IMG/VR virus record: IMGVR_UViG_3300011417_000024
Span: 1-26,762 of that record
Reading direction: 5' to 3' (one strand)
Length of the DNA stretch: 26,762 nt
Source of the DNA: a virus
Taxonomy: Duplodnaviria > Caudoviricetes
The notes beneath the pieces are model-generated. The model made no database searches. It was given only the letters and a program-made list of their open reading frames with translations, and was not told the DNA's origin. How positions within the stretch are numbered: the stretch's first letter is position 1; each line of letters starts with the position of its first letter. The position numbers were made by a program, and so were the translations under genes. Shown piece by piece: positions 1,455 to 24,967 of the stretch.

Positions 1455-1462
1455 TAGATTTA
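1455..1462 (+). promoter_or_regulatory. Candidate Bacteroidota-type -7 element (TAGATTTA)
   Basis: One mismatch to TAnnTTTG, with TTG at 1435-1437 and a terminator about 60 nt downstream. Confidence 0.35.
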
Positions 1463-1495
1463 GCTTGTATTAAGTCTTTTCATTAATTCCATACT

Positions 1496-1524
1496 AGCTT
1501 CCTTAATCCAGGGAAGCTTTTTTT
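1496..1524 (+). terminator. Intrinsic terminator
   Basis: Stem AGCTTCC/GGAAGCT followed by a T tract. Confidence 0.8.
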
Positions 1525-1530
1525 ATTTTA

Positions 1531-1538
1531 TACCTTTA
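1531..1538 (+). promoter_or_regulatory. Candidate -7 element (TACCTTTA)
   Basis: One mismatch to TAnnTTTG; same context as TAGCTTTA at 24533-24540. Confidence 0.35.
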
Positions 1539-1628
1539 GCTTTACAAGAAGACAGAGTTACTTCCCAGATCTTAGGTGAAGATCTCCAAGTTTCATGCTG
1601 TTTTATTTTTCAATAAACAACAACACTA

Positions 1629-1660
1629 AGCCCTGGTAGGTAGAATCACTGGGGCTTTTT
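1629..1660 (+). terminator. Intrinsic terminator
   Basis: Stem AGCCCTGGT/ACTGGGGCT (two G-U pairs) followed by a T tract. Confidence 0.75.
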
Positions 1661-1663
1661 CTA

Positions 1664-1836
1664 TATCTATAGCTAAAAATTTTTCAGAAAATTTTTTTGG
1701 GTATCTCTCTAAAAAATTTTGTATACCTCCTAAGGGGGGAACCATACCCCCCCAGAAAAAAAATGGGTACCCCCTAAGAAGATAACCACCTCAATAATAG
1801 CCCCCGCTTTGCTTTGGTGTGTAGGGAGGTACCCTA
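1664..1836. other. Non-coding A/T-tract and G/C-run palindromic region (possible origin, terminus or promoter region)
   Basis: AAAAATTTTT tracts, G6 (1734-1739) able to pair with C7 (1747-1753), GGGTACCC (1765-1772) and TAGGG-aggta-CCCTA (1822-1836). Confidence 0.4.
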
Positions 1837-1863
1837 TGCATATAACTAAAACTTTATATTTTT

Positions 1864-2169
1864 ATGGAAAATTTAATGTCAAGTCCTGTAATTGTGGACA
1901 TTAACAAGGTTGAGACAAAGGATGGCAAAGAGTTGTTTCAGTTACTCATTGAGCAAGAAGCATTTATAGCTAAAGCTGATGGGTCAGTAAGGGCTGGAAC
2001 ACTGAAGTGCAGAGTCCTCACAGACTGGAATTTTGCTAAGTGTAACTCTGTGAAAGGCAAGGCTTTACCAGGCTATGCTATAGCAAGAGTTGAATGTGAT
2101 CCTTATGAATTCACTGTAGATGGAGAGGTGAAGCTCTTCAACCACACCTGGGTTCTCCAGAAGGCATAG
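1864..2169 (+). CDS. Hypothetical protein, first gene after the control region
   Basis: 101 aa ORF with an A/T-rich leader and TAG stop. Confidence 0.75.
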   Translation: MENLMSSPVIVDINKVETKDGKELFQLLIEQEAFIAKADGSVRAGTLKCRVLTDWNFAKCNSVKGKALPGYAIARVECDPYEFTVDGEVKLFNHTWVLQKA

Positions 2170-2175
2170 TAGTAT

Positions 2176-2211
2176 GTACAAAGTAGCAGCCCTGACAAGC
2201 TGCTACTGTAC
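2176..2211 (+). other. Stable hairpin after the 1864 gene
   Basis: AGTAGCAGC (2182-2190) / GCTGCTACT (2199-2207) plus GTAC/GTAC; only a weak U tail. Confidence 0.7.
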
Positions 2212-2427
2212 TCTTCCCAGGAAGTAATTACATCTCCAGTGTTGAGCCATCTCCCCGGAAGCAGATTCAGGCAAGATACATTTTGAGAAGTAATTACTAC
2301 TGGTTACTACATTATCCTCTCAAGATTATAGATTATAACTCTTTTACTTTCGTACTTACGAATTACTCCCTGTGATTCTAACTTCTCACCTTGAGATGTT
2401 GCTTTTCACACACACATTTTAATTACA

Positions 2428-2510
2428 TAACCCTGTGCTATTACAGATAGCGAAGATCCTAAGTAGTATTAAGCTTAGATGATAAGGCTCGTAACCTTAC
2501 AGGGTTACTA
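2428..2510 (+). ncRNA. Degenerate cloverleaf (tRNA-like) RNA
   Basis: Closing stem TAACCCTG/CAGGGTTA, arms GCTAT/ATAGC and CTAAG/CTTAG, and TAAGG-CTCGTAA-CCTTA stacked directly on the closing stem. Confidence 0.5.
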
Positions 2511-2512
2511 TT

Positions 2513-2606
2513 TAGTAGCAGCTTACCCACCTGGACCAAGGAATATGGGTCATCAGACTATAACCTGAGTGCGCACCAGGTTATTCCAAGTCGAGTGCTG
2601 CTACTA
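2513..2606 (+). ncRNA. Three-way-junction structured RNA candidate
   Basis: Perfect 10 bp closing stem TAGTAGCAGC/GCTGCTACTA with inner stems ACCCA/TGGGT and GACT-ATAACCTG/CAGGTTAT-AGTC. Confidence 0.5.
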
Positions 2607-2783
2607 TCTAATCTTTACTAACAACTGCATGGATTGCAGTCTAAGTAGCTATTATCCACCAGCCTCGCGGAGAGGTCAAACAACAGTGTAAGTGGTGCTA
2701 GCTGGTACAGCAGGCTTTATAAACCTGCAAGTCAGCTGTAATAACTATGATTTTATTTTACTTAATCAATTACAACAACTACA

Positions 2784-2915
2784 ATGAAAACTTACATTCC
2801 AGCAAAACATGCTGCATTCTGGCAAGCTAAGGCTACACAGCGCATGGTATTATTTACTATGCTTCAGGCTTTAGACTTGAAACTCAGACACATTGATCCT
2901 ACCAATTACATTTAA
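2784..2915 (+). CDS. Small hypothetical protein (43 aa, not in ORF track)
   Basis: MKTYIPAKHAAFWQAKATQRMVLFTMLQALDLKLRHIDPTNYI, preceded by the conserved leader CAACAACTACAATG. Confidence 0.65.
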   Translation: MKTYIPAKHAAFWQAKATQRMVLFTMLQALDLKLRHIDPTNYI

Positions 2916-2938
2916 ACAACAACTAAACAACTACAATT

Positions 2939-3151
2939 ATGTGCAAATTTGATGTTTACACCCCGGTAGCCAACACTACCTATTGTGAGTTCTTCACCAG
3001 TGTCTATGCAGATAGCCAGGAAGAAGCTGAAGAACTGGCTGACAAAGCATTAGCTGAGTATGAAGCTCAAATGCTAAAAATGGCACCAGATACTGATTAT
3101 AGCAATGCTACAGCTGCATTGTGTCCTCCAGATCCTTATTTTGGATATTAA
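2939..3151 (+). CDS. Small acidic hypothetical protein
   Basis: 70 aa with VYADSQEEAEELA motif; leader AACAACTACAATTATG. Confidence 0.75.
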   Translation: MCKFDVYTPVANTTYCEFFTSVYADSQEEAEELADKALAEYEAQMLKMAPDTDYSNATAALCPPDPYFGY

Positions 3152-3153
3152 TC

Positions 3154-3351
3154 ATGAAAAGCTGGAAGTTACAAGGTGTTCAATTACACCACATCACTGT
3201 AGAGAGGTTAAAATATAAATATGCGTTGTACAAAACGCATATTTATAACTCTCATCCATTGATTGTGAACAACTGTTGCCCTGTGCAATATGCCTGCAGC
3301 ATTACATTTACTGCTGTGTACCCTGATGATTATACTTTATGCTTAAACTAA
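3154..3351 (+). CDS. Hypothetical protein
   Basis: ATG at 3154 just after the upstream stop; fills the gap to the next gene. Confidence 0.5.
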   Translation: MKSWKLQGVQLHHITVERLKYKYALYKTHIYNSHPLIVNNCCPVQYACSITFTAVYPDDYTLCLN

Positions 3352-3355
3352 CATT

Positions 3356-3652
3356 ATGCTACCTAAAATCTATGCTGTGTGTCGGCATTATCAGGATAGT
3401 GACTCTGATGGCTATTACCAGTGGGTTGGCAATCAGATCCTGTCTTATCATAAGACCCATGTTGGGGCTTTGAAAGAACAGAACATACACCTCGAGAAGG
3501 AAATTGCTGTTTCTGATACCAGCTCAGCCAGCGAGCACATCAAAGAACTTACCCGGAATAACCAGGTTGGGATCTTTGATGGTGTGGGAAGTAATGGTAA
3601 ACATTCTATTCAGCCATTGTATCACATTGTTACATTAGATCTTAAACCTTAA
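3356..3652 (+). CDS. Hypothetical protein
   Basis: 98 aa ORF in a tightly packed operon. Confidence 0.75.
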   Translation: MLPKIYAVCRHYQDSDSDGYYQWVGNQILSYHKTHVGALKEQNIHLEKEIAVSDTSSASEHIKELTRNNQVGIFDGVGSNGKHSIQPLYHIVTLDLKP

Positions 3653-3658
3653 TTTATT

Positions 3659-3994
3659 ATGCCAGAATCAATTATCATTTATGATGTACGTGAAAACTGT
3701 GCGCATACTGATGACCAGGGAGGAGAGTTTTATGTGGAAAGCATTTCCCAGCGTTTATTTCAAACCATGGCTTCAGCGCAGTTATATCTGCAAGAGTTAT
3801 TAAATCTTAGGATCTCAGCCAGATTAGCCAGCGCAGAACGCTATCCTCATATGCATGGCAATACTCCGCAGGCTATGGCAGATCTGGCTGCTAACAAGCT
3901 GCATTTTGATCCTGAGTATCATTTTTCTCAGTATCCTGGAGCTTTTAAGAATATGCCTATCTTCTTCATCCAGGAACAGAAAGTGCTTTATTAA
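3659..3994 (+). CDS. Hypothetical protein
   Basis: 111 aa ORF with weak similarity in layout to the 3356 ORF. Confidence 0.75.
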   Translation: MPESIIIYDVRENCAHTDDQGGEFYVESISQRLFQTMASAQLYLQELLNLRISARLASAERYPHMHGNTPQAMADLAANKLHFDPEYHFSQYPGAFKNMPIFFIQEQKVLY

Positions 3995-4051
3995 GCATTT
4001 TCTGGCTTTTCTGGGCATAACTTTTTTCATCAATCTTTAACCAAAAAACTT

Positions 4052-4255
4052 ATGAGCACCAAGCTATTAGCTTATGTAGTGATCAGCGCATTTACCACAG
4101 CCATATTCTTTGGAGCCTTGGTATTTGTGAGCACTGTGATGAGTATTACTGTGCCTTATTGGATCATTACCCTATTTCTGCTTATTGCCGGCAATTGCCT
4201 GGTAAGCTTCATCATTTTCTTCATTCACAGCTTCAAAAACAGCGGTGAAGATTAA
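4052..4255 (+). CDS. Small membrane protein (2 TM)
   Basis: Two long hydrophobic stretches. Confidence 0.75.
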   Translation: MSTKLLAYVVISAFTTAIFFGALVFVSTVMSITVPYWIITLFLLIAGNCLVSFIIFFIHSFKNSGED

Positions 4256-4305
4256 CTATCTACTTGAAATTCTATTAAATTTATTTACTAACTAACAACA
4301 AAATC

Positions 4306-4560
4306 ATGAAAAAGAGTATCGCATCCTTACTTCTACTCACTCTTGTAGTAGTGTTCACACTTACTGCAATGGGTGGTTTTATCCTGGCTATGATTGAAAA
4401 AGAGCCAAAGCTACTGGTGTTTGCGCTGGCCATTGCCGCGGGAGCTGTAGCTATGTTTGTGGTTCACGAAGTAAAAGCCGTGAATGCAGAACAGCGCAAA
4501 GTGGAAGAATTCATGGCTCATTCCAGAGCTAATGATCCTTACACAGTCAAAATAGATTAA
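4306..4560 (+). CDS. Small membrane protein (2 TM)
   Basis: MKK plus two hydrophobic segments and a polar tail. Confidence 0.8.
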   Translation: MKKSIASLLLLTLVVVFTLTAMGGFILAMIEKEPKLLVFALAIAAGAVAMFVVHEVKAVNAEQRKVEEFMAHSRANDPYTVKID

Positions 4561-4569
4561 TAACACTGG

Positions 4570-4652
4570 AGCCCACCTGGTAGTACCGTGAATGCAATGT
4601 TTAAGCTATGTCCACATATGCTGTGAGCTTGCTTCCGGTACTTTAGGTGGCT
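4570..4652 (+). other. Long imperfect hairpin immediately upstream of tRNA-Phe
   Basis: CCACCTGG/TTAGGTGG, AGTACCG/CGGTACT, GCAA/TTGC and TATG/CATA nested pairings. Confidence 0.65.
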
Positions 4653-4655
4653 TTT

Positions 4656-4727
4656 GGAACTATAGCTCAGTTGGTAGAGCAAAGGACTGAAAATCCTTGC
4701 GCACAGGTTCAATTCCTGTTAGTTCCA
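4656..4727 (+). tRNA. tRNA-Phe (GAA)
   Basis: Acceptor GGAACTA/TAGTTCC, D arm GCTC/GAGC, anticodon arm AAGGA-CTGAAAA-TCCTT, T arm ACAGG-TTCAATT-CCTGT; CCA not encoded. Confidence 0.95.
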
Positions 4728-4748
4728 CTTAATTAAACAACTACAATC

Positions 4749-4940
4749 ATGACTAATACACAGAAACAAATGATCCTTCAGGCCTGGGCTTGGTGTGATG
4801 CAGAAGATAAATCAACAGAGTTTATGCTTGCTTATCTCAGTGATATTTCTGGTGTTGATTACGAAGAAGTAACAGATTATATCTGTTCTGAAGAAGCAGA
4901 AAAAGACCGTGAAACTTATTATAAAACTTTAAATAATTAA
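4749..4940 (+). CDS. Small acidic hypothetical protein
   Basis: 63 aa; leader AACAACTACAATCATG. Confidence 0.8.
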   Translation: MTNTQKQMILQAWAWCDAEDKSTEFMLAYLSDISGVDYEEVTDYICSEEAEKDRETYYKTLNN

Positions 4941-4962
4941 AAACATTTCAACAACTACAATT

Positions 4963-5325
4963 ATGTTTAATTCACCAAGATTCAAGCGTCAGCTTCTTGA
5001 AGTAACAGAGCGCACTATAGTAGTGTGTGACAATCCTGATTGCAATTACGAAGTGCCTGCAGAAGCCAGTGAAAGAACATTAGCAGAGAAAATCAAAGAC
5101 TTAAGTTTTTATTTAAACAAGCCTTGTTTAATCTGTGGTGATAATCTGCTTACTGAAAAAGATTTTAAAACTTACATTACTGTGCAAAAGTTTGTAGCCT
5201 GGCTGAATAAATATTTCAGCTGGATCACCTGGTTTTATTCTGACAAAAGCTGGGCTAAAAGAAATACAATCTGTGTACATACACATGAAGGCATTACTAT
5301 AGAAGATGCACCTGTTAAACATTAA
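4963..5325 (+). CDS. Hypothetical Zn-binding protein
   Basis: CDNPDC...CLIC Cys pairs; leader CAACAACTACAATTATG. Confidence 0.75.
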   Translation: MFNSPRFKRQLLEVTERTIVVCDNPDCNYEVPAEASERTLAEKIKDLSFYLNKPCLICGDNLLTEKDFKTYITVQKFVAWLNKYFSWITWFYSDKSWAKRNTICVHTHEGITIEDAPVKH

Positions 5326-5342
5326 TCCTAAACTCTAATTTT

Positions 5343-5723
5343 ATGGATCCATTTGAAGAGGAAGCCAATAAGTGGCAATCCAGACTTAGGTTATTAAAAC
5401 AAGAAGACCTGAAGAAAAAGCTTAATGCTGCAGCTCTTGAGAAAGCCAGGATTACAGCAGCTATTACTCACAAAGAAGATGATTTGTTAACAGGTAAAAT
5501 AGTTAAGACTAGTGATTTACTAAAAGATTCAGGTCAGGCTAAACTTATTAACAAACAAGCTATGCTGCGTGCACAATATCCTGATAATCCACAATGTGGT
5601 TGTGGTTGTGTGATGTTAGAAAGAACTAACAAAACTACAGGTCAGAAATTCTGGGGATGTAGCAATTATCCTCAATGCAATGAAACTTTACAAATACCTG
5701 GTCAACGGCGTAACAGATACTAG
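5343..5723 (+). CDS. Protein with C-terminal topoisomerase-type C4 zinc ribbon (zf-C4_Topoisom)
   Basis: CGCGCVMLERTNKTTGQKFWGCSNYPQC signature. Confidence 0.85.
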   Translation: MDPFEEEANKWQSRLRLLKQEDLKKKLNAAALEKARITAAITHKEDDLLTGKIVKTSDLLKDSGQAKLINKQAMLRAQYPDNPQCGCGCVMLERTNKTTGQKFWGCSNYPQCNETLQIPGQRRNRY

Positions 5724-5730
5724 CAAAATT

Positions 5731-6351
5731 ATGACACAAGAACAATTAGATAAACGTAAAGCTGAGTTCACACCTGATGACTTTTACATAGTACATCAGC
5801 AAGAGCTGCAGGCAGTAAGTGGTGATTTGCGTAAGTTATTACAGAAAGCTTCTAATAATGAAGCGGTAACTATCATACACAATCAGATTGATATGTTGCA
5901 GCAGCGTGTAAATTACAAAGATGCTTTGCAATGCAGTAAACAAAGCTGTAGCTTTTGCTGCCATAGTGAAATTTACATTGGCCAACCTGAAGCAGATTTT
6001 ATCAAGCAACATGGTAATTATGTTATTGATGCAGCCCGGCAAGCTAAACAACGAGCTACTGATGATTACAGCAAGCTAAGCTTTGCGGATAAAGCCTGTA
6101 TCATGCTTAAAGATGGCAAGTGCCAGGTATATGAGCATAGGCCCAGCTTGTGTCGCAATCATGGTATAGCATTAGGTGAAGATCCATTGAAATGCTTTGA
6201 GCAATCACGAGACTTAGGCCAGCCTAATAAGCCTACTGTAAAGATTCAGCAGCCCAGAATGATAGCGTTGGAAGCTATGGCTACTTACATCACTACCAAA
6301 AATGCCAAGGACATCAATGATGTGAAGAACATTGCGGAGTATAACTGGTAA
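5731..6351 (+). CDS. YkgJ family cysteine-cluster (CxxCxxCC) protein
   Basis: CSKQSCSFCC...ACIMLKDGKCQVYEHRPSLCR. ATG 5731 avoids overlap with the upstream gene. Confidence 0.85.
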   Translation: MTQEQLDKRKAEFTPDDFYIVHQQELQAVSGDLRKLLQKASNNEAVTIIHNQIDMLQQRVNYKDALQCSKQSCSFCCHSEIYIGQPEADFIKQHGNYVIDAARQAKQRATDDYSKLSFADKACIMLKDGKCQVYEHRPSLCRNHGIALGEDPLKCFEQSRDLGQPNKPTVKIQQPRMIALEAMATYITTKNAKDINDVKNIAEYNW

Positions 6352-6373
6352 TTAAAATTTAAAACTTACAACA

Positions 6374-7462
6374 ATGATTCCTACTATTTATGTCTCAAAG
6401 CAGTTGCATTACCAGGATGGCCACTCTGATAAAGTTTACAATGTAACTATTGAAGAAGTTCAGCCAGCTTTATATGTAGTGAATTTTGCTTATGGCAGAC
6501 GCGGATCTACACTTCAAACTGGTACTAAAACCAGTAAGCCTACAGGTATTCTTGAAGCTGAAAAAATTGCCCGCAAGCTGATCACTGAAAAATTAAACAA
6601 AGGTTATGTTGATGTGAGTGCTGGTCAAGGGCAAGTTAACATTGTTACTGTGCCTAAAGCTAAAGCTAAGGCTGCTGTTTTCCCCATGTTACTTATTCCT
6701 ATTGATGAAGACGAAGTAGAACAGTATTTGGAAGATGATAACTGGATCATGCAAGAGAAAATTGATGGTGAGCGCAGAATGATTGAAACTGCTTATGGTA
6801 TGAGCAGGGGCTTAAACCGTAAAGGCCAGGAAGTAGCTTTACCTGCAACTATTGAACAAGCCATCAATAAAATCAGTCTTAAGAAATTAGGTATGATCTT
6901 CGATGGTGAGCAGATTGGTGATGACTATCATGTTTTTGATTTACTAGGTGAATCTACCAGCAATGCGCTGGCTTTTAAGAAACGCCATGAGGTGTTGCTA
7001 GAGTTAATAAACAAATACAACACAAGCCCTCACATTCATTTAGTAAAAGCTGCTCAGGGATTTGCTGCTAAATCAAAGCTTTATGAAAAGCTTAAAGCTG
7101 ACAACAAAGAAGGCGTAGTATTCAAACACCAAGCTGGATTGTATACACCAGGAAGAACACAAGATGCAGTGAAATACAAGTTTTACGAGACTGCCAGCTT
7201 TGTAGTATCTGCTCTCAATGCACAGCGCTCAGTTCAGATTGCTGTTATGGCTGGTGATGCTTGTCTTCCGGTAGGCAATGTAACCATACCCGTGAATCAT
7301 GCAATACCTAAAATAGGTGCAGTAGTTGAAGTCAGATATTTATATGCTTATGCAGAAGGCTCGGTGTATCAACCAGTTTATCTTGGGGAGCGTAGTGACA
7401 TCAGCCCCAGTGATTGTTCCATGTCACAGCTCAAGTATAAACCAAACATTTCTTTAATTTAA
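6374..7462 (+). CDS. WGR-domain ATP-dependent DNA ligase
   Basis: N-terminal SDKVY...VNFAYGRRG...EKLNKGY (WGR domain). Nucleotidyltransferase motifs EKIDGER, FDGE, FDLL, EGVVFK, VKYK. C-terminal OB fold VEVRYLY...YQPVYLGERSD. Confidence 0.9.
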   Translation: MIPTIYVSKQLHYQDGHSDKVYNVTIEEVQPALYVVNFAYGRRGSTLQTGTKTSKPTGILEAEKIARKLITEKLNKGYVDVSAGQGQVNIVTVPKAKAKAAVFPMLLIPIDEDEVEQYLEDDNWIMQEKIDGERRMIETAYGMSRGLNRKGQEVALPATIEQAINKISLKKLGMIFDGEQIGDDYHVFDLLGESTSNALAFKKRHEVLLELINKYNTSPHIHLVKAAQGFAAKSKLYEKLKADNKEGVVFKHQAGLYTPGRTQDAVKYKFYETASFVVSALNAQRSVQIAVMAGDACLPVGNVTIPVNHAIPKIGAVVEVRYLYAYAEGSVYQPVYLGERSDISPSDCSMSQLKYKPNISLI

Positions 7463-7488
7463 TTTCTAAACTCAAAACAACAACTACA

Positions 7489-7653
7489 ATGAAAGGTATT
7501 GTTCAATTAATTGTTTTTATTATCTGTGGTGCAGTAGGAATCTATTTCCTTGCCATGAATTTCAAAATTATCATGGCCATCATAGGTGTTGTCCTGTTTA
7601 TTGGTGCTGTAGTCAGCTTTATGGGAGATAATCCCGACAAAAAATCACGTTAA
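7489..7653 (+). CDS. Small membrane protein (54 aa, not in ORF track)
   Basis: MKGIVQLIVFIICGAVGIYFLAMNFKIIMAIIGVVLFIGAVVSFMGDNPDKKSR; leader CAACAACTACAATG; TAATG coupling to the next gene. Confidence 0.75.
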   Translation: MKGIVQLIVFIICGAVGIYFLAMNFKIIMAIIGVVLFIGAVVSFMGDNPDKKSR

Positions 7654-7910
7654 TGATAACACCAAGAAAGATTATAGGCTACGCAAAAGAAGTCGTAGCC
7701 TATACACCAAAAATCAGATTATATGTTTGGTTTTTACTTTTGCTTCTTGTTGTTACGCCTACAGCAGTAGCACTTAGCTATGAAGTTGGAGATTCTGTGC
7801 GGATTCCTGGCTTTTGTGTAATGCTGCTATTACTTATCGGTGCCGTACTTGATTTATTCAGGGATTTTCCAGATACTTTTAAAGAAAACTTTAACCGCAA
7901 AAAAGATTAA
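7653..7910 (+). CDS. Small membrane protein (2 TM)
   Basis: Two hydrophobic segments. Confidence 0.75.
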   Translation: MITPRKIIGYAKEVVAYTPKIRLYVWFLLLLLVVTPTAVALSYEVGDSVRIPGFCVMLLLLIGAVLDLFRDFPDTFKENFNRKKD

Positions 7911-7919
7911 ACAACTACT

Positions 7920-9774: not shown

Positions 9775-9822
9775 GTATTGCTGCAAGGTTTTTGAGAGGT
9801 CTTTAGCCTTGCGCAATGTTTA
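9772..9822 (+). other. Long hairpin upstream of the tRNA-like cluster
   Basis: TAAGTATTGC/GCAATGTTTA and GCAAGGTT/AGCCTTGC; no U tract. Confidence 0.65.
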
Positions 9823-9896
9823 GTACCTGAATGCAATAAGCATAATAGCCAAAGCCTTATTCCATCTCCTGTCCAGTGGTTCAAGCTGGGCTACCA

Positions 9897-10006
9897 GCCC
9901 CTGTGGTGAAATTGGCAAACACAGGTAAAATAGCGGAATGCATGCGCATCTCTTCTACATTTATCCGTCTGAAAATGACATACAGGTTCGACTCCTGTTG
10001 GGGGCT
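9897..10006 (+). ncRNA. tRNA-Leu-like RNA with a 32-nt anticodon loop (25 extra nt)
   Basis: Acceptor GCCCCTG/TGGGGGC, Leu-type D arm GTG-AAATTGGCAAA-CAC, stem GGTAA/TTATC, variable arm GTC/GAC, T arm ACAGG-TTCGACT-CCTGT. Confidence 0.75.
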
Positions 10007-10018
10007 CAAGTTTTATTT

Positions 10019-10128
10019 AGAGGGGTGAAGACAGATGTACAGTAAGGTGGTATTTCCGTAGTTGTTGGTGCTACAAACCTGTGCATTTTTGGGTTTTCTA
10101 CGTGGAGGTTCGAATCCTCCTCCCTCTG
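10019..10128 (+). ncRNA. tRNA-like RNA (acceptor stem plus T arm) carrying one long hairpin in place of the D and anticodon arms
   Basis: AGAGGGG/TCCCTCT, GGAGG-TTCGAAT-CCTCC, inner GAAGAC/GTTTTC, AGATGTACAG/CTGTGCATTT, GTGGTATT/GGTGCTAC, loop TCCGTAGTTGTT. Confidence 0.75.
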
Positions 10129-10156
10129 CTATTTTTCACTGTATAATCTAACTAAC

Positions 10157-10429
10157 ATGCTTAAATCAATCCGAAAATTTATTGTTAAAGCCTGGCATTG
10201 GCTATTATGTCACATAATAGGCTATCATGAACTTGTTACCCCGTTTCTTGAAAGGGGTAGTATAGATCCTGAAGTTATAGCTCTTGTTACTAATCCCAAT
10301 CTTACTGCAGAAGAATTTCTTGAAATTGCTGTAAGAGATAGTAAGGTATATTGCAAGCATTGCAGAAGATACTTTACTCCTGGTAGAGGGTATTCAAAGC
10401 TTACTCATCCTAGAGAACTTAAAGATTAA
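10157..10429 (+). CDS. Hypothetical protein with C/H metal-binding motif
   Basis: LLCHIIGYH...YCKHC. Confidence 0.75.
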   Translation: MLKSIRKFIVKAWHWLLCHIIGYHELVTPFLERGSIDPEVIALVTNPNLTAEEFLEIAVRDSKVYCKHCRRYFTPGRGYSKLTHPRELKD

Positions 10430-10432: not shown

Positions 10433-10726
10433 ATGGGTATAGCTAGACTTAAAGCTTTAACTGAAAGCGAAAAAGATGAGCTTGTGCTCATGGTATTACA
10501 GCAACTCACGTATCAGGCCAAAGAAACTTTCATGAAAAACGAAGTGATAAATCTAGGCATGATCATAAAGCTTATTGAGCTTAGTATAGCAACATTAGCT
10601 GAAGCTCCTGGTGAACAAACCAGCATTAAGCTTGAAATTGATAGCTTGAAGCTAGATGTAAAAATTAAAGCCAGATCAGGTACAGATCAAATTGAACTCG
10701 ACATGTTAAATAATCAACAACTATAA
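10433..10726 (+). CDS. Hypothetical protein
   Basis: 97 aa ORF. Confidence 0.75.
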   Translation: MGIARLKALTESEKDELVLMVLQQLTYQAKETFMKNEVINLGMIIKLIELSIATLAEAPGEQTSIKLEIDSLKLDVKIKARSGTDQIELDMLNNQQL

Positions 10727-10737: not shown

Positions 10738-11490
10738 ATGAAACAACATAAAGTAATGTCCATTGATTTTAAGCACAGCAATCCAGGTGTAGTTTTTGCA
10801 TCTGAAGAGGAATTTAAACAAGATTGCATAGCCAGCTTACAAGATCTTCTTAAGCGCAGAATAGAATTTATGGGAGATGTGGAGATTACAGAAGAAAATC
10901 TGCCTCCATTGCCAATGTTTGTTAATGTTTATTTTGAAAATGGTAGTTATGCTGCTACGTTGCTCCATCCTGAAAGCGATACAGACAAGCAGTATTTACT
11001 TACTGGTGTGAAGAAGATGCTGGCTAAGTACAATGCAGCCAAGAAAATCAAAAGTGTATTACTTATGATGGAAGCCTGGGTAGGAGAAATAGATACAAAA
11101 GCAAGAAAGAAAGAGGATCCTTTTACCAAAGAAATGTCAGAGGAACAGATGCAACGCAGAATAAGCCGTGAATGGAAAGAGAACAAGATCAAAAAAGTTA
11201 CCCGGATAGTTTGTGAATATCAAACTCCGGTGATGATTGATAATAAACGGCACACACAAGTATCTACTTCAGTGTATAAATTATTCGAACATAAGATTTT
11301 AATACCTGATGAAGAACTTACCAAAAAGATGAGTTATAACACAAACTCTAAAGATCATAACCGAAAGCCCTGGTTTAGTATGTTCACTGAATTTGCAGCA
11401 GATGATGCTGTTGCTGATAAAGATGTATTAAATTTTAATGTTTTTACAGCAGTAACATTTCTCAAAAAGCTGAACAAGCTGATGCAATAA
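10738..11490 (+). CDS. Hypothetical protein
   Basis: 250 aa ORF with an EAW motif. Confidence 0.8.
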   Translation: MKQHKVMSIDFKHSNPGVVFASEEEFKQDCIASLQDLLKRRIEFMGDVEITEENLPPLPMFVNVYFENGSYAATLLHPESDTDKQYLLTGVKKMLAKYNAAKKIKSVLLMMEAWVGEIDTKARKKEDPFTKEMSEEQMQRRISREWKENKIKKVTRIVCEYQTPVMIDNKRHTQVSTSVYKLFEHKILIPDEELTKKMSYNTNSKDHNRKPWFSMFTEFAADDAVADKDVLNFNVFTAVTFLKKLNKLMQ

Positions 11491-11509
11491 TAATCTTAAA
11501 CTTACAACT

Positions 11510-13708
11510 ATGCTTAGAAGAGTTCTTATTACCAGAAATACAGCTTATCTGGGCATGGTTGATGAGTTTAACTTATTAAACAGGCCTAATGAAAGTTTTC
11601 ACGTTGTTACTACTGATGAGCAGATCAACAAGATCAAGCAATTTATTAAAGACCTCGAGCCTGTAATAGGCTTAGACATTGAAACTCCCTGTACAGATCC
11701 TTATTGTGGTGAGATACTGCTTACTACACTCAGCACTCCTGAGATGGTAGTCACTTTTGATCATTTTACCATTACGCCGGAAGAAATGCTGCAAGGCCTG
11801 GATCTTGAGCATAAGCTTATTATAGCACACAATGCCAAGTTTGAAGTCAGCTGGTTTTTAAAACACAAACAGGAATTTCCTAATGTGCACTGCACTATGC
11901 TCGCAGAGCAAAAGCTTTATCAAGGCTGTGAAGATCTGCGGCATAATATCATAGAAGTGTTAACCCGAAGAGGTTTTGCTATTCCTGAAGACATGAACAA
12001 AGATGTCAGGGAGGATTTTGTACAGCCTTGGTATAAGCAACATACTTTGGTGCACGTACTGTATAACCAATCTGATACGTTGTTATTGCATCAGCTCAAG
12101 TTGTTGCAAGACACATTGATAGAAGATCTGGGTTTAACATTTCATATAAAACAAATTCATTTTCCCTTAATTAAAGTCTTGGCTAAAGCTGAGCTTGAGG
12201 GCGTAGTTATTAACGAGCCCGAGCTTATAAGATTAGCCCGGGAAGCTGCAGCTAAAATGCAGGTGTTAGAACAGGACATGAATGCTTGGTTAAACTTGCA
12301 ATATCCTACTGTGGATCTGATTAGTTTAAACAAGCCCCTGGTTACAGATCTGGCCAAAGTCAGGACCCGCTTAATCCGGACTGAAGGCAGAGCTATTAAA
12401 ACAGAAGGCTTGATTCTCCGGTATGAAACCCAGAGTAAACAGCATCTGAAAGCTTATCAGGTAGCTGTAAAAAGTAACAGTGCAGCTGCTACAGCCTATC
12501 AGGCTGCTGTAGTGCTGTTAAAAGAGCTGGAAAAGCAAGTAAGCATCTCCTGGAGTAGCTCTGCACAGGTGCTGGTCTTATTAAATACCCTGGGCTGCCA
12601 TCCATTGCCTCAGGCAAAGGATAGGAAGACAGGTAAGTTCAAGCCCAGCTTAGGAAAAGCTGCCCGGGAACGCTGGCTATTGAAGCGTAAGGACCATGTT
12701 TTATACCCCTTAATGGTCCAGTATGATCAGTACATGAAGCTTAGTAAGCATGTGAACAGTTTTGGAGAGAGTTTCCTGACCAAGTACAAACACCCAATTA
12801 CCGGTAGATATCACACCAGCTATAAGCAGGGGCGGGTAGCTACTGGCAGGCTTGCTTCAGGAGATGCCAAAGGACATCCTGCTAAGTTTAATTCCCAGCA
12901 AATTATAGGTATTGCAGCTGTAAGAGCCTGCTTTGGCACTACTCCCGGTGATAATATCGCTACAGTAGATTTATCTGGTGCTGAGTTGATTACCATGTGT
13001 AGTTTAGCTAATGACTTGAACTTGCTTAAGCTTTCTACCGGGGATATGCATAGTTATTTTGCTAACCTGGGCTGGAAAGCTATTTATAAGCATAGAAAGC
13101 AGCCATGGACCTCTGCAGATGAGATCAGCAAGAAGCAACATCCTGAGAAGCGCAAGGAATACAAGCCTATGTTATTTGGTACTGTGTATGGTTTGAAACC
13201 AGCTAAAGCTGGGGAGACATTAAACATTCCCGAGCATGAAGGTGGCATTGCTCTGAATACAATCATTGCAGAAATACCGGATACTATCAAAATGGTAAAA
13301 GAAGCTGTGAGATTTAGTTTGCAAAACGGATATGTTATACATAATAACAGAACCAGATCCCGGAGATGGTTTCCTCAGGTGTTTAAAGCCCGTGATGAAA
13401 AACGTGAGCTTACTTTTTTAGAGCGCATGGAAGTAGAAGGTGGTGCACGCAACACCAGAATCCAGGGGACTCAAGCTGATATGTTATGTGAAAGCATGGT
13501 ATTTCTTCAACGTTACATAGACCTGTATAAAATTCCTGCAGTGTTATTAATGCAAGTTCATGATGAGCTGGTAGTAAAATACAAGAAAGATCTTACCTGG
13601 TTTCCTGCAAGAGTATCCGAGATCATGACCAGAACTGCTAACAAATACCTGAGGCCTGGTATTGTAATGAAAGCAGACATGAAGTTTGGGCCGTATTGGG
13701 ATAAATAA
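11510..13708 (+). CDS. polA: Family A DNA polymerase with 3'-5' exonuclease
   Basis: Exonuclease motifs DIET, HNAKFE and YNQSD; TGRLAS; motif A DLSGAEL; motif B RKEYKPMLFGTVYG (Phe at the E. coli 762-equivalent position); NTRIQGTQAD; motif C VHDEL. Confidence 0.97.
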   Translation: MLRRVLITRNTAYLGMVDEFNLLNRPNESFHVVTTDEQINKIKQFIKDLEPVIGLDIETPCTDPYCGEILLTTLSTPEMVVTFDHFTITPEEMLQGLDLEHKLIIAHNAKFEVSWFLKHKQEFPNVHCTMLAEQKLYQGCEDLRHNIIEVLTRRGFAIPEDMNKDVREDFVQPWYKQHTLVHVLYNQSDTLLLHQLKLLQDTLIEDLGLTFHIKQIHFPLIKVLAKAELEGVVINEPELIRLAREAAAKMQVLEQDMNAWLNLQYPTVDLISLNKPLVTDLAKVRTRLIRTEGRAIKTEGLILRYETQSKQHLKAYQVAVKSNSAAATAYQAAVVLLKELEKQVSISWSSSAQVLVLLNTLGCHPLPQAKDRKTGKFKPSLGKAARERWLLKRKDHVLYPLMVQYDQYMKLSKHVNSFGESFLTKYKHPITGRYHTSYKQGRVATGRLASGDAKGHPAKFNSQQIIGIAAVRACFGTTPGDNIATVDLSGAELITMCSLANDLNLLKLSTGDMHSYFANLGWKAIYKHRKQPWTSADEISKKQHPEKRKEYKPMLFGTVYGLKPAKAGETLNIPEHEGGIALNTIIAEIPDTIKMVKEAVRFSLQNGYVIHNNRTRSRRWFPQVFKARDEKRELTFLERMEVEGGARNTRIQGTQADMLCESMVFLQRYIDLYKIPAVLLMQVHDELVVKYKKDLTWFPARVSEIMTRTANKYLRPGIVMKADMKFGPYWDK

Positions 13709-15627: not shown

Positions 15628-15827
15628 AAGCAGCAGTAGACATTTTAAAGAAATTAATGCAAGAAGCATTTGAAGCTGGCTATGCAAATAGAAATGATGA
15701 AACTTCTGCTGGAAACCCATTTCATAAAACTCCTGATTTTCCTGAATGGTTTGAAGGAGATAAAAAGAAATGGATAAATGCATTAATTGAAATGAAAGCT
15801 TTACTTCTTAATTCTAAGAAATTATGA
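15624..15827 (+). CDS. Hypothetical protein
   Basis: 67 aa with AFEAGY motif and ATGA coupling. Confidence 0.7.
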   Translation: MKAAVDILKKLMQEAFEAGYANRNDETSAGNPFHKTPDFPEWFEGDKKKWINALIEMKALLLNSKKL

Positions 15828-16402: not shown

Positions 16403-16445
16403 TTGCTTTTTTTACCTTCAACACCCTGTTTAACCCATTTTTACT

Positions 16446-16946
16446 ATGCTTACAACTGATAAAAAAGAGTTGGCTGATATTGCTGACCAAATCCGTGCAC
16501 TAGCTCTCCTTTCTGTCCTTGTAGAAGATCCAACTTCGGGTCTGATCCAGCTTAATCCAGAAATGTATATTCATATTGGCAGAGCTACTCCAACAAATCC
16601 AAGCAATAATGCTCAGCGGGCTAAGTCTTTGGTAGGGCCCTATCAAAAGTTATGGCCTGCAAAGATTGCTTCAGGAGGCAGACCTATAAGACAAGGCCCT
16701 GTAGCTTTGATTAAAAAGCTTACTGTATTTCTTAATAAGCATCCTAAAGTTACAGAACAGCAAATCCTGGATGCAACTACCCGCTATATAGCTATGAAAG
16801 CTAAAGAGAATTATAACTATATGGTATGTAGTGATTACTTCATTGAAAAAGGAAGTACCAGTGTACTTGAAAGCTATATCACAAATCCAGAACTTGGTTC
16901 AAAAGCATTAGAATCTGCTAAAGCTATAAACCAGCGCTTTATATGA
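16446..16946 (+). CDS. Phage protein coupled to DnaB (putative helicase loader or replication initiator)
   Basis: WP...GRPIR...ILDATTRYI...YM...YFI pattern and ATGA coupling to dnaB. Function is inferred from position. Confidence 0.5.
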   Translation: MLTTDKKELADIADQIRALALLSVLVEDPTSGLIQLNPEMYIHIGRATPTNPSNNAQRAKSLVGPYQKLWPAKIASGGRPIRQGPVALIKKLTVFLNKHPKVTEQQILDATTRYIAMKAKENYNYMVCSDYFIEKGSTSVLESYITNPELGSKALESAKAINQRFI

Positions 16947-19794: not shown

Positions 19795-19847
19795 TCACAC
19801 TCACACACAAAAGCTAAAAACAATTAAAAAATTAAAAACTAAAAATT

Positions 19848-20576
19848 ATGATTACTCCTGGTATTTTAACAGATCTGCATATTGTCAAAGCAGAAAAAAA
19901 TGATAAAGGAACTCTGGTAGTTACTGTTCAGCAAGGCGAAGGCGATGCTGAGTCATTGGCATCTATATCCAAAGTAACTTCTCAGTCAGAATCTGAGCAG
20001 CAGTTTTATTTCTGGCCTATAAAAGCAGATGACAGACTTACTACTGCAGAAGCTATTGGCTCTGCTATGTATGAAAGATTCAAAGATTTCAGAAATCAGC
20101 TTGGGCATATTCTGGAACAGTTCATGCCAGTTGACAGCCTGAATTTTGATCCTGTTGCAGGCATGCCACATATTACTACGGTAACAGCTTTGAAAGCTGC
20201 ACTGGGAGATCCTGACACGGGTGAAATTGTTGCTGCAAAGGTGTATGATAATTACATCACGGCTTTTATCAACTATATCACACCTGTATTGCAAGGCCCT
20301 ACACCAGCACTCAGAGGTAAATTTGTACGTGCTTCCAAAGACAAGCATTTCCCGGCATTTCCACGGTTCATCCCATTCCTAGAGCCTGCAAGCATTCCTG
20401 AGAAAAGCAGCCGGCTCTCCTTCACAGCTTATGAGCTGGGATTCAGAACAGGAGATGACAAGAAGGATAAAACTACCTGGACTGGTTTTGATCAGTCTAA
20501 TCCTGTCCCAGGTGGCGATGCTTCTGCTGAAGATGCAGCTGCTGTGGATAAATTGTTCCCAGCAACTAACAGGTAA
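19848..20576 (+). CDS. Hypothetical protein, possible ssDNA-binding protein
   Basis: Lies between the Sak4-like ATPase and primase; beta-rich N-terminus and acidic tail. The SSB role is inference only. Confidence 0.45.
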   Translation: MITPGILTDLHIVKAEKNDKGTLVVTVQQGEGDAESLASISKVTSQSESEQQFYFWPIKADDRLTTAEAIGSAMYERFKDFRNQLGHILEQFMPVDSLNFDPVAGMPHITTVTALKAALGDPDTGEIVAAKVYDNYITAFINYITPVLQGPTPALRGKFVRASKDKHFPAFPRFIPFLEPASIPEKSSRLSFTAYELGFRTGDDKKDKTTWTGFDQSNPVPGGDASAEDAAAVDKLFPATNR

Positions 20577-20584
20577 GCCAAGCC

Positions 20585-21598: not shown

Positions 21599-21603
21599 CT
21601 AAC

Positions 21604-21936
21604 ATGACAGATCTTGATCAAAATATCAGAAAGCTTTTCAATAAGCATTTCCCCACATTACAAGCAGAAAACACAATGTCGGGAAATGAGATAAAAGTTT
21701 TCATAGAAGAGCTGGGCATTATAGTCCAGAAATTAATGGCTAATTCCAAAAAACAGGAATACAGTGAAGGTGCTTACATTAGCATCCGGGAACTGGAAGA
21801 GATTCTCCGGGTTATGCGAGATCTTAAAGAATGTTATGAAAATAACAAACCACACACCACACAAGATATTCTCAGACTAGATGAACTCAAGCAGCTGGAA
21901 TACAAACTCACAGAAAAAATACTAACTAACAGGTAA
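21604..21936 (+). CDS. Hypothetical protein
   Basis: 110 aa, predicted helical. Confidence 0.75.
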   Translation: MTDLDQNIRKLFNKHFPTLQAENTMSGNEIKVFIEELGIIVQKLMANSKKQEYSEGAYISIRELEEILRVMRDLKECYENNKPHTTQDILRLDELKQLEYKLTEKILTNR

Positions 21937-21948
21937 CTTACAACAACT

Positions 21949-23028
21949 ATGAAAAAAATCGCAATCAAAACCAACTTACTAGGCAGGGGAGAAACTTTTA
22001 AAATTCTGGCTGTAGGCCATGCTACAGGCTATCCAGTACTACTCGTGGGCCCTCCAGGTGTGGGTAAAACCAGAGTGTTGCTGGATTACAGCATGGGCCT
22101 GAACAATGGCAATGCTATAGATGCATTGCAACATACTTTCATTCTGGAAACAGATGAAGGAACCAGACCAGCCGAGATCAAAGGTAGAGTAGACATGGAG
22201 AAGCTGCTTGCTCCTGGTATTGACACCGCTACCGGTAAAAACCTTACGCCAAGATATGAGCTGAACTCTCCTATTACAAAATCAAAAATGATTTTGATCA
22301 ATGAGGTGGATAAAGCCAATCCTGGTTTGAGAAACTCTATGCTTGGTGTCATGAATGAGAAAATGCTGTTCAATGGCCAGGACAAGATTTACTGCCCATG
22401 GGAACTGTTCTGTGCAAGCTGTAATGTTATCCCTAAAGAGGAAGCTAACAATCCTTTCTGGGATAGGTTTGTGATCAAGCATCAAGTTAATAGGTTAACT
22501 AAAACACAACTGTTGCAATACTTCGGCAAGAATTCAAAGGCTCCAGTGGAGATTAATCTCCCTGAAAGCAATGATATTGACACATTTATTGCCAGCGATA
22601 TCAACAGTGATTTGCTGAGAAGCTTTTTGGATGTGACTTATGATATCCTGTCTGACAGAAGCTTGAGTTATATCCCACGCATCATTGCTGCAGTAGCTTT
22701 TGTATTTGATGTAAACGTAAAAAAAGCTGCTATTAAGGCTTGTGAAATCCTGGCTGGTCCAGAGCGTGCCAAAACATTAGGCACCAAACTTGAGCCTGCT
22801 GAGATCAGCAACATCAGGAACAAAATAGAGTATATTAATACACTGCAAAACTATGATCAGATCTTGAATCAAATCGAAGATATCAAGAAAGCTGCCAAAG
22901 CTGCAAGTGTGCTTGATTCTGTCACCAAGGTTGATCTGGAAGACCTGGCTAAAGATTTAAACAAAATCTTGTCCAAGCATCCAGTGTATAATGCTGGTCT
23001 GCCTCAAGATGCAGTATCTGCAAACTAA
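21949..23028 (+). CDS. MoxR/RavA-type AAA+ ATPase
   Basis: GPPGVGKT, LINEVDKA, RNSMLGVMNEK, ASCN and FWDRF motifs. Confidence 0.9.
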   Translation: MKKIAIKTNLLGRGETFKILAVGHATGYPVLLVGPPGVGKTRVLLDYSMGLNNGNAIDALQHTFILETDEGTRPAEIKGRVDMEKLLAPGIDTATGKNLTPRYELNSPITKSKMILINEVDKANPGLRNSMLGVMNEKMLFNGQDKIYCPWELFCASCNVIPKEEANNPFWDRFVIKHQVNRLTKTQLLQYFGKNSKAPVEINLPESNDIDTFIASDINSDLLRSFLDVTYDILSDRSLSYIPRIIAAVAFVFDVNVKKAAIKACEILAGPERAKTLGTKLEPAEISNIRNKIEYINTLQNYDQILNQIEDIKKAAKAASVLDSVTKVDLEDLAKDLNKILSKHPVYNAGLPQDAVSAN

Positions 23029-23053
23029 TTTTTAATTTTTAAATCTACCAACT

Positions 23054-24424
23054 ATGGCAAAGAAGACCGGTAAATGGGATAATTGGAGTTGGGAAGATGC
23101 TTTTCAAGTCTCAGAGAGGGAGCTGGTTAACCCCAAGCTCTCTCGCTGGGATAAAAGCGATCTATATGATCTGCTTGTAGTAAGAGATCTGCGTAAACAT
23201 TGTGCTGATAAAAATATTCAGCCTTATGCTGCAATGTCTGATGTAGATTTCGAAGCTGCAGTTGAAAAAGTATTCCCGAAATATATGTTGTATGATACCT
23301 ATAACATTAATCACACACCTACAGAAAATATCAAGCTTGCCAATACAGATGAAAACAACAAATGGCTTTTTGATTTCTTAATGAACAAAGCCACGGGTTA
23401 TTATTCTAAAACTGTCACTCAGCAAAATCCTTTTAACAGTTATGTGTACAGCTCTGAGATCATGAAGCAGCTGTTTGATATATATCAACAGGAAAATCCT
23501 CAGGGCCCTGGTGATGGTGATGGTGAAGGTAAAGATGGTAAAGGCCAGTCTGGTATGCAGAAAATGCTAAGCAAAATGCAAAGCAATTCAAAAGGCAATC
23601 AGAAGCTGGATAAAGCCATGGACCAGGCTCAGCAAAAAGCAGATGAAAGGATCAAAGACGCTGATGATACTGGCAATGCTACAGGAGATCTTGGATGTGA
23701 TAAATCCATGGGTGATTTTAGCCTGGGAGAGTTATCAGAATTCATGAACTACATGGAAGCACTGGATAACATAGAGCTACCAGAATCTGTAGTAACCAGC
23801 TTTGTGAAGAATACCTTAAAGCTTTCTGAAGCTTATTTTTCCACCAAGTACACAGAATCTCAGGTAGAGTTGCTCGAGGCTGATGTAATAGATGATCTAT
23901 CTAACATAGAATATCTGTTTCCTCAGCTGAGGGCACTAGGTCTGGACAATATTGTAACTCATGAGCGTAAATACCACATGAAGTTTGATCTGTTTGTAGA
24001 TATTTCCGGATCTATGAGCAGTCAGATCTATGATGTTAAAGGTAATGGCAGCATTGCTGGTATAGACCTGGCCAAGATCACTGCCCTAAAGCTTAAAAAC
24101 ATGGGTCATGTAGAGGATGTATATCCTTTTCAGTCCAGGGTAGAAAAAAAGCTTACCAAGAAAAGTGACATCGCGTTGATGAAATGCACCGGAGGTACTG
24201 ATATCAATGAAGTTATTCGTACAGTACAAAAAACAGACAGGCCCAGTGTAGTGATCACAGACATGCAGGATAGTATAAGTATTTACGATCCTAATGTGTT
24301 CTTTGTGGGCATACTTGGAGCCACGTTTGAGAATTTCCGCGGACAAACTATAGGCAAACAATACATTGAAAACCGCCAGTGTATCAAATATGACAATACT
24401 AACAAGTTTGTCCTGGTGCAGTAA
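23054..24424 (+). CDS. von Willebrand factor A (VWA) domain protein, probable MoxR partner
   Basis: MIDAS DISGSM, GGTD and VITD; Gly/Asp-rich linker GPGDGDGEGKDGKG. Confidence 0.88.
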   Translation: MAKKTGKWDNWSWEDAFQVSERELVNPKLSRWDKSDLYDLLVVRDLRKHCADKNIQPYAAMSDVDFEAAVEKVFPKYMLYDTYNINHTPTENIKLANTDENNKWLFDFLMNKATGYYSKTVTQQNPFNSYVYSSEIMKQLFDIYQQENPQGPGDGDGEGKDGKGQSGMQKMLSKMQSNSKGNQKLDKAMDQAQQKADERIKDADDTGNATGDLGCDKSMGDFSLGELSEFMNYMEALDNIELPESVVTSFVKNTLKLSEAYFSTKYTESQVELLEADVIDDLSNIEYLFPQLRALGLDNIVTHERKYHMKFDLFVDISGSMSSQIYDVKGNGSIAGIDLAKITALKLKNMGHVEDVYPFQSRVEKKLTKKSDIALMKCTGGTDINEVIRTVQKTDRPSVVITDMQDSISIYDPNVFFVGILGATFENFRGQTIGKQYIENRQCIKYDNTNKFVLVQ

Positions 24425-24437
24425 TTTGTTACCTTTG
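24407..24437 (+). promoter_or_regulatory. Bacteroidota primary-sigma promoter
   Basis: TTTG (24407-24410), 19-nt spacer, TACCTTTG (24430-24437): an exact match to the TTTG / TAnnTTTG consensus. Confidence 0.75.
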
Positions 24438-24441
24438 CACT

Positions 24442-24517
24442 TCCTACAGTCTTCTAAGCATAGACTTAAGGTTATACAGTATATAAAAAGCCGTTATTTA
24501 TTAACGGCTTTTATTTT
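24442..24517 (+). ncRNA. Candidate trans-acting antisense sRNA against the polA start
   Basis: Bounded by a promoter and a terminator, contains no ORF, and 24450-24463 is the reverse complement of 11508-11521. The 5' end is approximate. Confidence 0.65.
24486..24517 (+). terminator. Intrinsic terminator, possibly bidirectional
   Basis: AAAAGCCGTTA/TAACGGCTTTT flanked by A and T tracts. Confidence 0.85.
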
Positions 24518-24558
24518 ATATTTTTTTCTGTATAGCTTTAGGAAAATGCTTACAACTT

Positions 24559-24912
24559 ATGGGCAGTAAACGTAACCGCACTGCAGGCCATGGCTTCGAG
24601 AGGTGCATTATCAACGAGCTTAAGCTATTAGGCTTCCCGGAAGCAGTTTCAGCAAGATCAGAAAGTAGAAATTTAGATGACAAAGGTGTTGATATCTGTA
24701 ATGTCAAGCCTTATAATATCCAATGTAAAAACACTGTGCTTACACCTAACTATCACGAGCTGATTACTAATATGCCACAGGATCCGGAAGTAGCCAACAT
24801 CGTCATTCATAGAAAAACTAAAAAAGCTAATACCAGGTTTGTAACCCAGGATGATTATGTGCTAATGCGAAAGTCAGACTTCTACAAGATCCTGAAAAAG
24901 CTTCATACTTAA
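24559..24912 (+). CDS. PD-(D/E)xK nuclease, Holliday junction resolvase-like
   Basis: GHGFER...GVD...IQCK motif. Confidence 0.8.
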   Translation: MGSKRNRTAGHGFERCIINELKLLGFPEAVSARSESRNLDDKGVDICNVKPYNIQCKNTVLTPNYHELITNMPQDPEVANIVIHRKTKKANTRFVTQDDYVLMRKSDFYKILKKLHT

Positions 24913-24938
24913 AATTTTTGTTAGTTAGTCAACACTAA

Positions 24939-24967
24939 GGGGAGCTGGAAACGGTTCCCCTTTTTTT
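24939..24967 (+). terminator. Intrinsic terminator
   Basis: GGGGAGCTG-GAAA-CGGTTCCCC followed by T7. Confidence 0.92.

Follow-up and report, generated by a model that had tools for sequence, protein, structure and literature searches.

Phage antisense RNAs directed against the phage's own starts are already known, C4 and sar among them (PMC5320573, PMC12197685). The C4 RNA of P1/P7, in the accessible part of its description, blocks ribosome-binding sites on genes that the phage itself carries (PMC5320573), so an initial annotation of the DNA studied here went too far in stating that no phage system built this way had been described. GibS of Bacteroides thetaiotaomicron, from a phylum reported there as lacking an obvious Hfq or ProQ, is a trans-encoded small RNA (sRNA) with an extended 5′ seed across start codons (PMC7366714). 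Here, we analyzed the virus record IMGVR_UViG_3300011417_000024, whose whole length of 26,762 bases is the window, and we center on slot 1, a predicted antisense RNA of ~75 nt at 24444..24520 on the plus strand with a likeness to GibS in these traits.

Slot 1 likely makes an sRNA, because its promoter-to-terminator unit mirrors the phage's own replication starts and the slot is rematched in three relatives. The observed part comprises both motifs, for the promoter and for the terminator, the complementarity to the starts, and a matching that is specific to each lineage among the four. We consider it fairly probable that the RNA acts in trans on the own replication-gene starts as a replication throttle.

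Directly 5′ of the anti-polA tract, 24407..24437 on the plus strand carries the Bacteroidota primary-sigma promoter consensus TTTG-N19-TAnnTTTG, taken for the motif scan from PMC7366714. It is the sole full match to TTTG-N19-21-TAnnTTTG on both strands of the 26.8 kb scanned, and this host-type promoter was absent from the initial annotation. The 5′ end of the RNA is placed according to the −7 box position. In the predicted fold, a 5′ hairpin (24448-24466) holds the anti-AUG in its 9-nt loop, a second seed (24467-24480) is single-stranded just before the terminator, and the terminator itself (24486-24512) is followed by a U tract. Opening the seeds is predicted to cost 2.2 and 1.3 kcal/mol.

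Slot 1 is intergenic, with the vWA gene on one side and the resolvase gene on the other, and stands where the replication block ends. At the level of motifs, it has the intergenic promoter and the intrinsic terminator of a trans-encoded sRNA. It also has the predicted properties of one, an accessible seed and complementarity to distant starts beyond chance. Slot 1 is unchanged in one 200-nt contig of a related strain, and the three other runs have no coverage of the seed.

The chance tests of the elements used the 49 start windows of the window together with shuffles, 369 coding windows and 470 internal-ATG windows. All three seed matches claimed initially were found where they had been placed, and that of slot 1 is an exact 14-nt complement between 24450-24463 and 11508-11521 at the polA start. 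By itself, an inverted match of 14 nt is nothing unusual, since the window has nine exact inverted pairs of at least 14 nt, two of them joining non-coding sequence to a start window, and the seed matches were therefore weighed against chance. The second of those two pairs (1056-1069 with 15800-15813) is A/T-rich and was treated as chance.

By duplex energy, 24444-24485 pairs best with polA at −26.6 kcal/mol, 16446 and 10157 being next, and its scores are equalled by 0 of 200 shuffles, 0 of 369 coding windows and 0 of 470 internal-ATG windows. The initial proposal of three start-directed antisense seeds is supported for slot 1, which passed the suggested shuffle check, and only moderately for the seeds at 10058 and 24918.

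When self-folding is included, slot 1 is predicted to bind the polA start (11490..11521, plus strand) first among the 49 starts at −18.3 kcal/mol, through the 14 exact pairs at 11508-11521 and 10 pairs at 11490-11499. The predicted second target is the start of the pre-DnaB gene (16426..16458, plus strand) at −17.8 kcal/mol, and the third is the start of gene 10157 (10138..10163, plus strand) at −16.6 kcal/mol with a two-part match of 9 + 7 nt. The adjacent resolvase leader follows at −15.9 kcal/mol. The fifth-best start reaches −11.5 and the median start −4.3 kcal/mol, and a binding of −15 is attained by 1 of 639 non-start windows.

Two side observations touch these targets. A two-part tag, CTGTATA and then ATGCTT within 14 nt, is present at three of the six CTGTATA sites (10139, 24528 and 26359); both halves complement slot 1, and upstream frames may begin with the ATGs at 24546 and 26372. 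Elsewhere, a tract at 3995-4030 that follows a hairpin matches the polA start with G-U pairs included. This match scored above ten foreign controls, but the tract is at chance by start counts.

The slot between the vWA and resolvase genes is present, with a terminator, in all four lineages, which are the window and the close relatives G001/L001 (MoxR 81%), L014 (71%) and L004/L005 (60%). The slot sequences have 50% column identity across the lineages and are too diverged for base-by-base covariation. An exact −7 box stands 5′ of the slot in three of the four, compared with a background of 50 in 1536 stop codons across the loci retrieved. The slot position thus appears to be kept and the address sequence to be rewritten between lineages.

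The rewritten slots match their own genomes. In L005, 15 nt of the slot pair exactly across the start of that lineage's own 19060 homolog, with ten further pairs besides, and the L014 slot makes a 16-nt helix with 2 G-U on the start of its own 19060 homolog. The helix score was reached by 1, 2 and 1 of 1000 shuffles for the window, L005 and L014, respectively, and by 0 of 300 foreign start sets for each. The G001 slot is the top multi-start site among 4748 windows (5/500 and 1/500 shuffles) and forms a long predicted duplex with its own MoxR start at −15.6 kcal/mol.

In a matrix of slots versus genomes, the own genome gives the best score in all four rows. For the pre-DnaB start, the best predicted partner is its own slot in three of three lineages (−17.8, −12.3 and −20.0 kcal/mol versus −3.8 to −11.5 for the other slots). 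The 19060 homolog prefers its own slot in three of four, with −15.3 and −17.1 kcal/mol for the own slots versus −6.3 and −4.5 when swapped. The primase and gene 19848 starts have no preference for the own-lineage slot in the same RNA swap computation. By the own-slot preference, seed and target change together among the relatives, as they would for a trans-encoded sRNA.

Over all starts, with the adjacent ones dropped from the own-pair set, a binding of −12 kcal/mol or stronger is found for 15 of the 123 own pairs; the corresponding number is 5 of 381 for sister pairs and 16 of 1600 for pairs with distant phages. Comparison with related phages had been put forward initially as a check, and for slot 1 it came out as lineage-specific matching. 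Moreover, an unbiased scan covered 513 intergenic regions in 66 lineages, and in it the slots of the window, L005 and L014 all scored above every one of the ten foreign controls.

Several points weigh against the trans-acting reading. The G001 slot has no exact −7 box, failed to beat all ten foreign controls in the 513-region scan, and falls short of significance with its best single target (14/100 in one test, 165/1000 shuffles and 39/300 foreign start sets in another); polA is a poor target there at −4.2 kcal/mol. The L005 slot is at 11/100 by plain duplex energy with the pre-DnaB start ranking 5 of 16, and the pre-DnaB value of −20.0 depends in part on pairing with a purine tract located 28-41 nt upstream, where the analyzed start region ends. 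There is no excess in more distant lineages, where 37 of 484 regions beat all ten controls and ~44 were expected. The RNA boundaries and the −12 cut-off were set after the data had been seen, the relatives' starts come from a simple open reading frame (ORF) caller, and the comparison has only four lineages, all genome fragments and not independent. For these reasons, a Fisher value for own versus sister pairs overstates the case.

Further scans did not enlarge the comparison. The polA and vWA scans gave no additional close lineage, the vWA scan of species genomes gave no relatives and the MoxR scan one distant match. Downstream of the slot terminator in L014, 6362-6460 has a hairpin that in the predicted fold ends in a perfect stem with a CUUCUAA loop, and its tip presumably resembles the anticodon arm of tRNA-Arg(UCU). 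Derivation of the slot from a tRNA-Arg anticodon loop was considered and rejected, as it leaves the start match unexplained and the window copy has no anticodon stem.

A further counterpoint lies next to slot 1. Its pairing with the downstream resolvase leader (24528..24552, plus strand, including an out-of-frame ATG at 24546) reaches −28.5 kcal/mol with 13 + 7 pairs, a score matched by none of 500 shuffles. Three starts have ATGCTTA in common with this leader, and the slot 1 tract may therefore have originated as an inverted copy made locally, from which part of the trans match may derive. The unit could then be a 5′ leader, or attenuator, of the resolvase operon whose tract refolds on the downstream leader in a read-through RNA, with the distant matches as by-products of common leader motifs or as inputs that open the switch. 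The promoter is oriented into the resolvase gene, and the read-through hairpin is predicted at −37.6 kcal/mol with a z-score of −7.4. However, of the 14-nt polA match the cis partner contains no more than the core, ATGCTTA, and cis pairing is absent in G001, L005 and L014 (402, 396 and 455 of 500 shuffles), where the distant own-start matches persist. Only these two things, the extra polA-matching bases and the three relatives without cis pairing, argue beyond a local inverted copy. We regard the cis switch as quite unlikely.

Composition alone might also produce such matches. A U/G-rich tract in front of a terminator would be complementary to A/C-rich leaders by default, and on this reading the units would be no more than promoters and terminators. 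The nine inverted pairs in the window agree with this, and so do 19 of 58 distant lineages in which the top multi-start site is non-coding (4.3 expected), for which reason the non-coding nature of the top site was dropped as an argument. Composition would fit the units at 1463, 1540 and 9897, and perhaps 24918. For slot 1 itself it is very improbable, since in three of four lineages neither composition-preserving shuffles nor sister-phage starts match the slot. A real RNA could instead serve mainly in immunity or exclusion against incoming related phages, or in control of host mRNAs, rather than in replication timing. Its address differs between lineages, like the a′ loops of C4 in P1 versus P7 in the described part of that system (PMC5320573), and a host-type promoter would be active in a quiescent state. 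Nevertheless, the best slot matches fall in the same genome, and there is no integrase, repressor or antirepressor among the 27 and 18 proteins scanned, from an incomplete genome. We give this main job little credence, although it overlaps with the replication throttle because self-directed pairing would serve both roles.

For the replication throttle, the following course is proposed. The host polymerase would transcribe slot 1 at the end of the replication block, and the RNA would begin to pair at two places, the hairpin loop that holds the anti-AUG and the linker that is single-stranded. It could cover approximately −20 to +12 of several replication-gene starts. The pairing would lower ribosome loading and so repress polA, the pre-DnaB gene and gene 10157. 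Its most likely role would be to hold down or time DNA replication.

The second candidate is carried by a tRNA-like scaffold at 10019..10128 on the plus strand (fold z-score −3.3), which presents a GUAGUUGUUG seed (10058-10067) at its tip. Its fold has an acceptor stem and a T-arm, a long stem replaces the D and anticodon arms, and its tRNA-like end could be an RNase P substrate. Another tRNA-like unit precedes it at 9897..10006 on the plus strand, with intact D- and T-arms and an extended anticodon arm. Neither unit has an ARAGORN call at default settings or a match to Rfam RF00005, and neither folds as a canonical cloverleaf with a 7-nt anticodon loop. With relaxed settings, ARAGORN made 273 calls on 7 sequences, which were set aside as noise.

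The 10058 seed complements CAACAACTAC at 2773, 4949 and 7478. It has the sole minus-strand ACAACTA, which has 14 plus-strand copies located in 13 of the 49 start windows. Its possible targets are the early small genes at 2773..7919 on the plus strand, whose leaders carry ACAACTAC (2775, 2927, 4737, 4951, 7480 and 7911). Starts hit by 8-mers of 10045-10075 number 12, equalled by 11 of 1000 shuffles (5 of 1000 with 9-mers), and this tract ties for first with one coding window among 4467 sliding windows. Opening the seed is predicted to cost 2.6 kcal/mol. The cofold score of −8.0 was not counted against the unit because cofolding omits loop-loop contacts.

These units may be just decayed or repurposed tRNAs, acting as decoys or processing signals, with the loop match arising by chance; we see the case for this as evenly poised. 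The tRNA-like frame suits it, as do the chance-level duplex energy of 10045-10075 (129/200 shuffles), the coding window that ties the start count when ~11 elements were tested, and the other tRNA-like remnants of G001 that have no clear seed. Yet the leader 8-mer to which the seed is complementary is the most frequent one, occurring at 11 of 49 starts, and the seed lies open at the tip. The region 9907-10098 also has 3 changes per 192 nt in a diverged strain, versus 5-14 per ~90-160 nt in several coding pieces, although this is a hint only from one low-depth contig. A second RNA aimed at the ACAACTA leader class, the commonest leader motif, is a possibility that we rate somewhat short of probable.

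The sole relative for which the region is available has no clear counterpart of the 10058 seed. A G001 tract at 10571-10586 was considered for it and not counted as replication, since it overlaps an ORF end and may be a local hairpin. The two remnants of G001 (L169 region, ~3011-3098 and 7480-7540) have weak start pairing; the D-loop is enlarged in one, whereas the other lacks a D-arm and carries CAU in an enlarged loop. The unit at 9897 has no target signal (148/200 shuffles as good against starts), and start pairing of the tracts at 9846 and 9928 is at chance. Nearby, the non-coding 9815-9895 has one window copy of a ACCTGAATG ... ATCTC motif with a 6-bp stem and a TGGKTCAAG loop, and L001 3070-3270 has two such stem-loops. 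A search for CATCTC-stem-TGGKTCAAG gave 28 viral matches, with the full 6-bp stem in G001 alone.

The third candidate, slot 2, spans 24910..24968 on the plus strand with its seed at 24918-24929, followed by a strong terminator at 24937-24962. The seed complements 4287-4298 over 12 nt, and 21594 and 21921 over 11 nt each. The pairing of 24910-24936 is moderately above chance, with 10 of 200 shuffles as good by the best duplex and 2 of 200 by the top three. It was not replicated in three lineages, where the count is 3 of 110 for own pairs, each of the three belonging to the window, versus 2 of 267, so the check in relatives that favored slot 1 gave no own-phage excess here. L014 has no gap at this position. 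The seed is unchanged beside a much-changed coding stretch in a diverged strain, a hint only from one low-depth contig. Slot 2 may be the 3′ untranslated region of the resolvase gene, because it has no exact −7 box, and we find it doubtful that it is an sRNA aimed at own starts.

Two units near the start of the window are probably sRNAs without an assigned target. Unit 1463 (1455..1524, plus strand) has a variant −7 box TAnnTTTA and a terminator, and unit 1540 (1531..1660, plus strand) has a variant −7 box and a terminal hairpin with a U tract. The variant box is a weak signal because it occurs seven times on the minus strand too. Pairing of 1463-1495 is at chance (113/200 shuffles). The 1540-1628 tract stands at 3/80 by best energy, yet 11 of 369 coding windows are as good, its start counts are at chance (495/1000), and its best binding after folding is only −8.3 kcal/mol. 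With such chance-level pairing, no target is supported for the anti-AUG tracts noted initially in these two units, either within the 27 kb of the window or among seven further starts of a near-identical contig. CAACACTAAG stands before two window terminators (1618-1627 and 24929-24938), and ACTAAG before one in L001 (17954-17959).

Taken together, likely one retargeted antisense RNA is present, and possibly two or three. The results do not establish the initial suggestion that leaders fall into classes, each served by one RNA, since 24918 is unreplicated, 10058 has no clear counterpart, and for 1463 and 1540 no target is supported. A broader design can be imagined, in which the slot RNA addresses the replication genes, the tRNA-scaffolded loop RNA the dominant early-leader motif and a 3′-end RNA the second motif. 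RNA rather than repressors would then switch the gene classes, and the addresses would arise by inverted copying of starts into fixed cassettes. We consider this multi-RNA address system unlikely.

Other structured regions were noted. The 614-nt region 2170-2783 has no convincing gene, folds with a z-score of −5.3 that 0 of 20 shuffles match, and has no Rfam match; it is possibly a large structured RNA or leader. A long near-perfect hairpin (4565-4655, z-score −5.2) lies directly 5′ of the tRNA-Phe gene called at 4656-4728 and has no start-pairing signal. Before gene 1864, for which a query gave no matches, 1673-1850 is a palindromic and homopolymer-rich run that could be an origin or a terminal-region signal.

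Nearly all genes of the window are on the plus strand. They run from small early genes through ligase, tRNA-Phe, polA, an SF2 helicase and DnaB, and further downstream to a Sak4-like protein, primase, MoxR, its probable vWA partner and a RusA-like resolvase. PolA was assigned by Pfam, and the neighbor of MoxR is probably its vWA partner, a label from the gene order beside MoxR without a family hit. The pre-DnaB gene encodes 166 aa with no Pfam or PHROG match and with weak atlas leads to replication-initiator families, and gene 19060 has an SSB-like atlas lead only (score 0.89).

The window is an early/replication region. Close MoxR relatives sit on contigs of up to 94.7-96.5 kb, so most of the phage genome is missing from it. 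Its polA is only 22-24% identical to those of crAss-like records, and no close relative was found among annotated phages. The phage sequence occurs in DNA runs from freshwater sediment and groundwater. A Shine-Dalgarno-like word is found in 1 of 49 leaders and A at −3 in 31 of 49, in line with the initiation features described in the accessible part of a report on Bacteroidota (PMC6847099). The host is inferred as Bacteroidota because of the promoter type and this leader composition.

If the throttle is real, the phage controls its own replication genes by an sRNA with an address rewritable in place. Such control would operate in a host group that initiates translation without Shine-Dalgarno pairing. 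The four lineages would provide four natural RNA-target sets for swap tests of Hfq-free antisense control. The promoter-seed-terminator design would be a compact one for knock-downs in Bacteroidota.

Among other phage-related RNAs, a phage-satellite sRNA is said, in a title cited by PMC10884466, to act across both genomes. A literature search at the abstract level, covering few subscription papers, found no Bacteroidota phage RNA of the slot 1 design. The sRNAs sar, OOP, aQ, 24B_1, VpdS and PreS are alike in tuning phage or host expression and developmental choice, but belong to phages of Proteobacteria and work on a single antisense partner or via Hfq (PMC12197685). In the accessible part of that source, none of them is described as a fixed slot retargeted among replication-gene starts.

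C4 is nearer, being a phage RNA of ~77 nt whose loops pair with ribosome-binding regions of its own mRNA, and its recognition is in two parts with a specificity that shifts between related phages (PMC5320573). As far as that source describes it, C4 is a three-stem RNA cut out by RNase P, whereas slot 1 is a hairpin and a terminator with its own promoter. The C4/CI Rfam model had no match in the window (E≤1) or in four relative loci (E≤0.5). C4 targets the icd/antirepressor operon, whereas the best slot targets are the polA, pre-DnaB, 19060 and MoxR starts, with several replication genes predicted per RNA. GibS, by the available part of its report, is host-encoded with a conserved seed and metabolic targets (PMC7366714), while slot 1 is phage-encoded and by prediction self-directed, and its seed is replaced between lineages.

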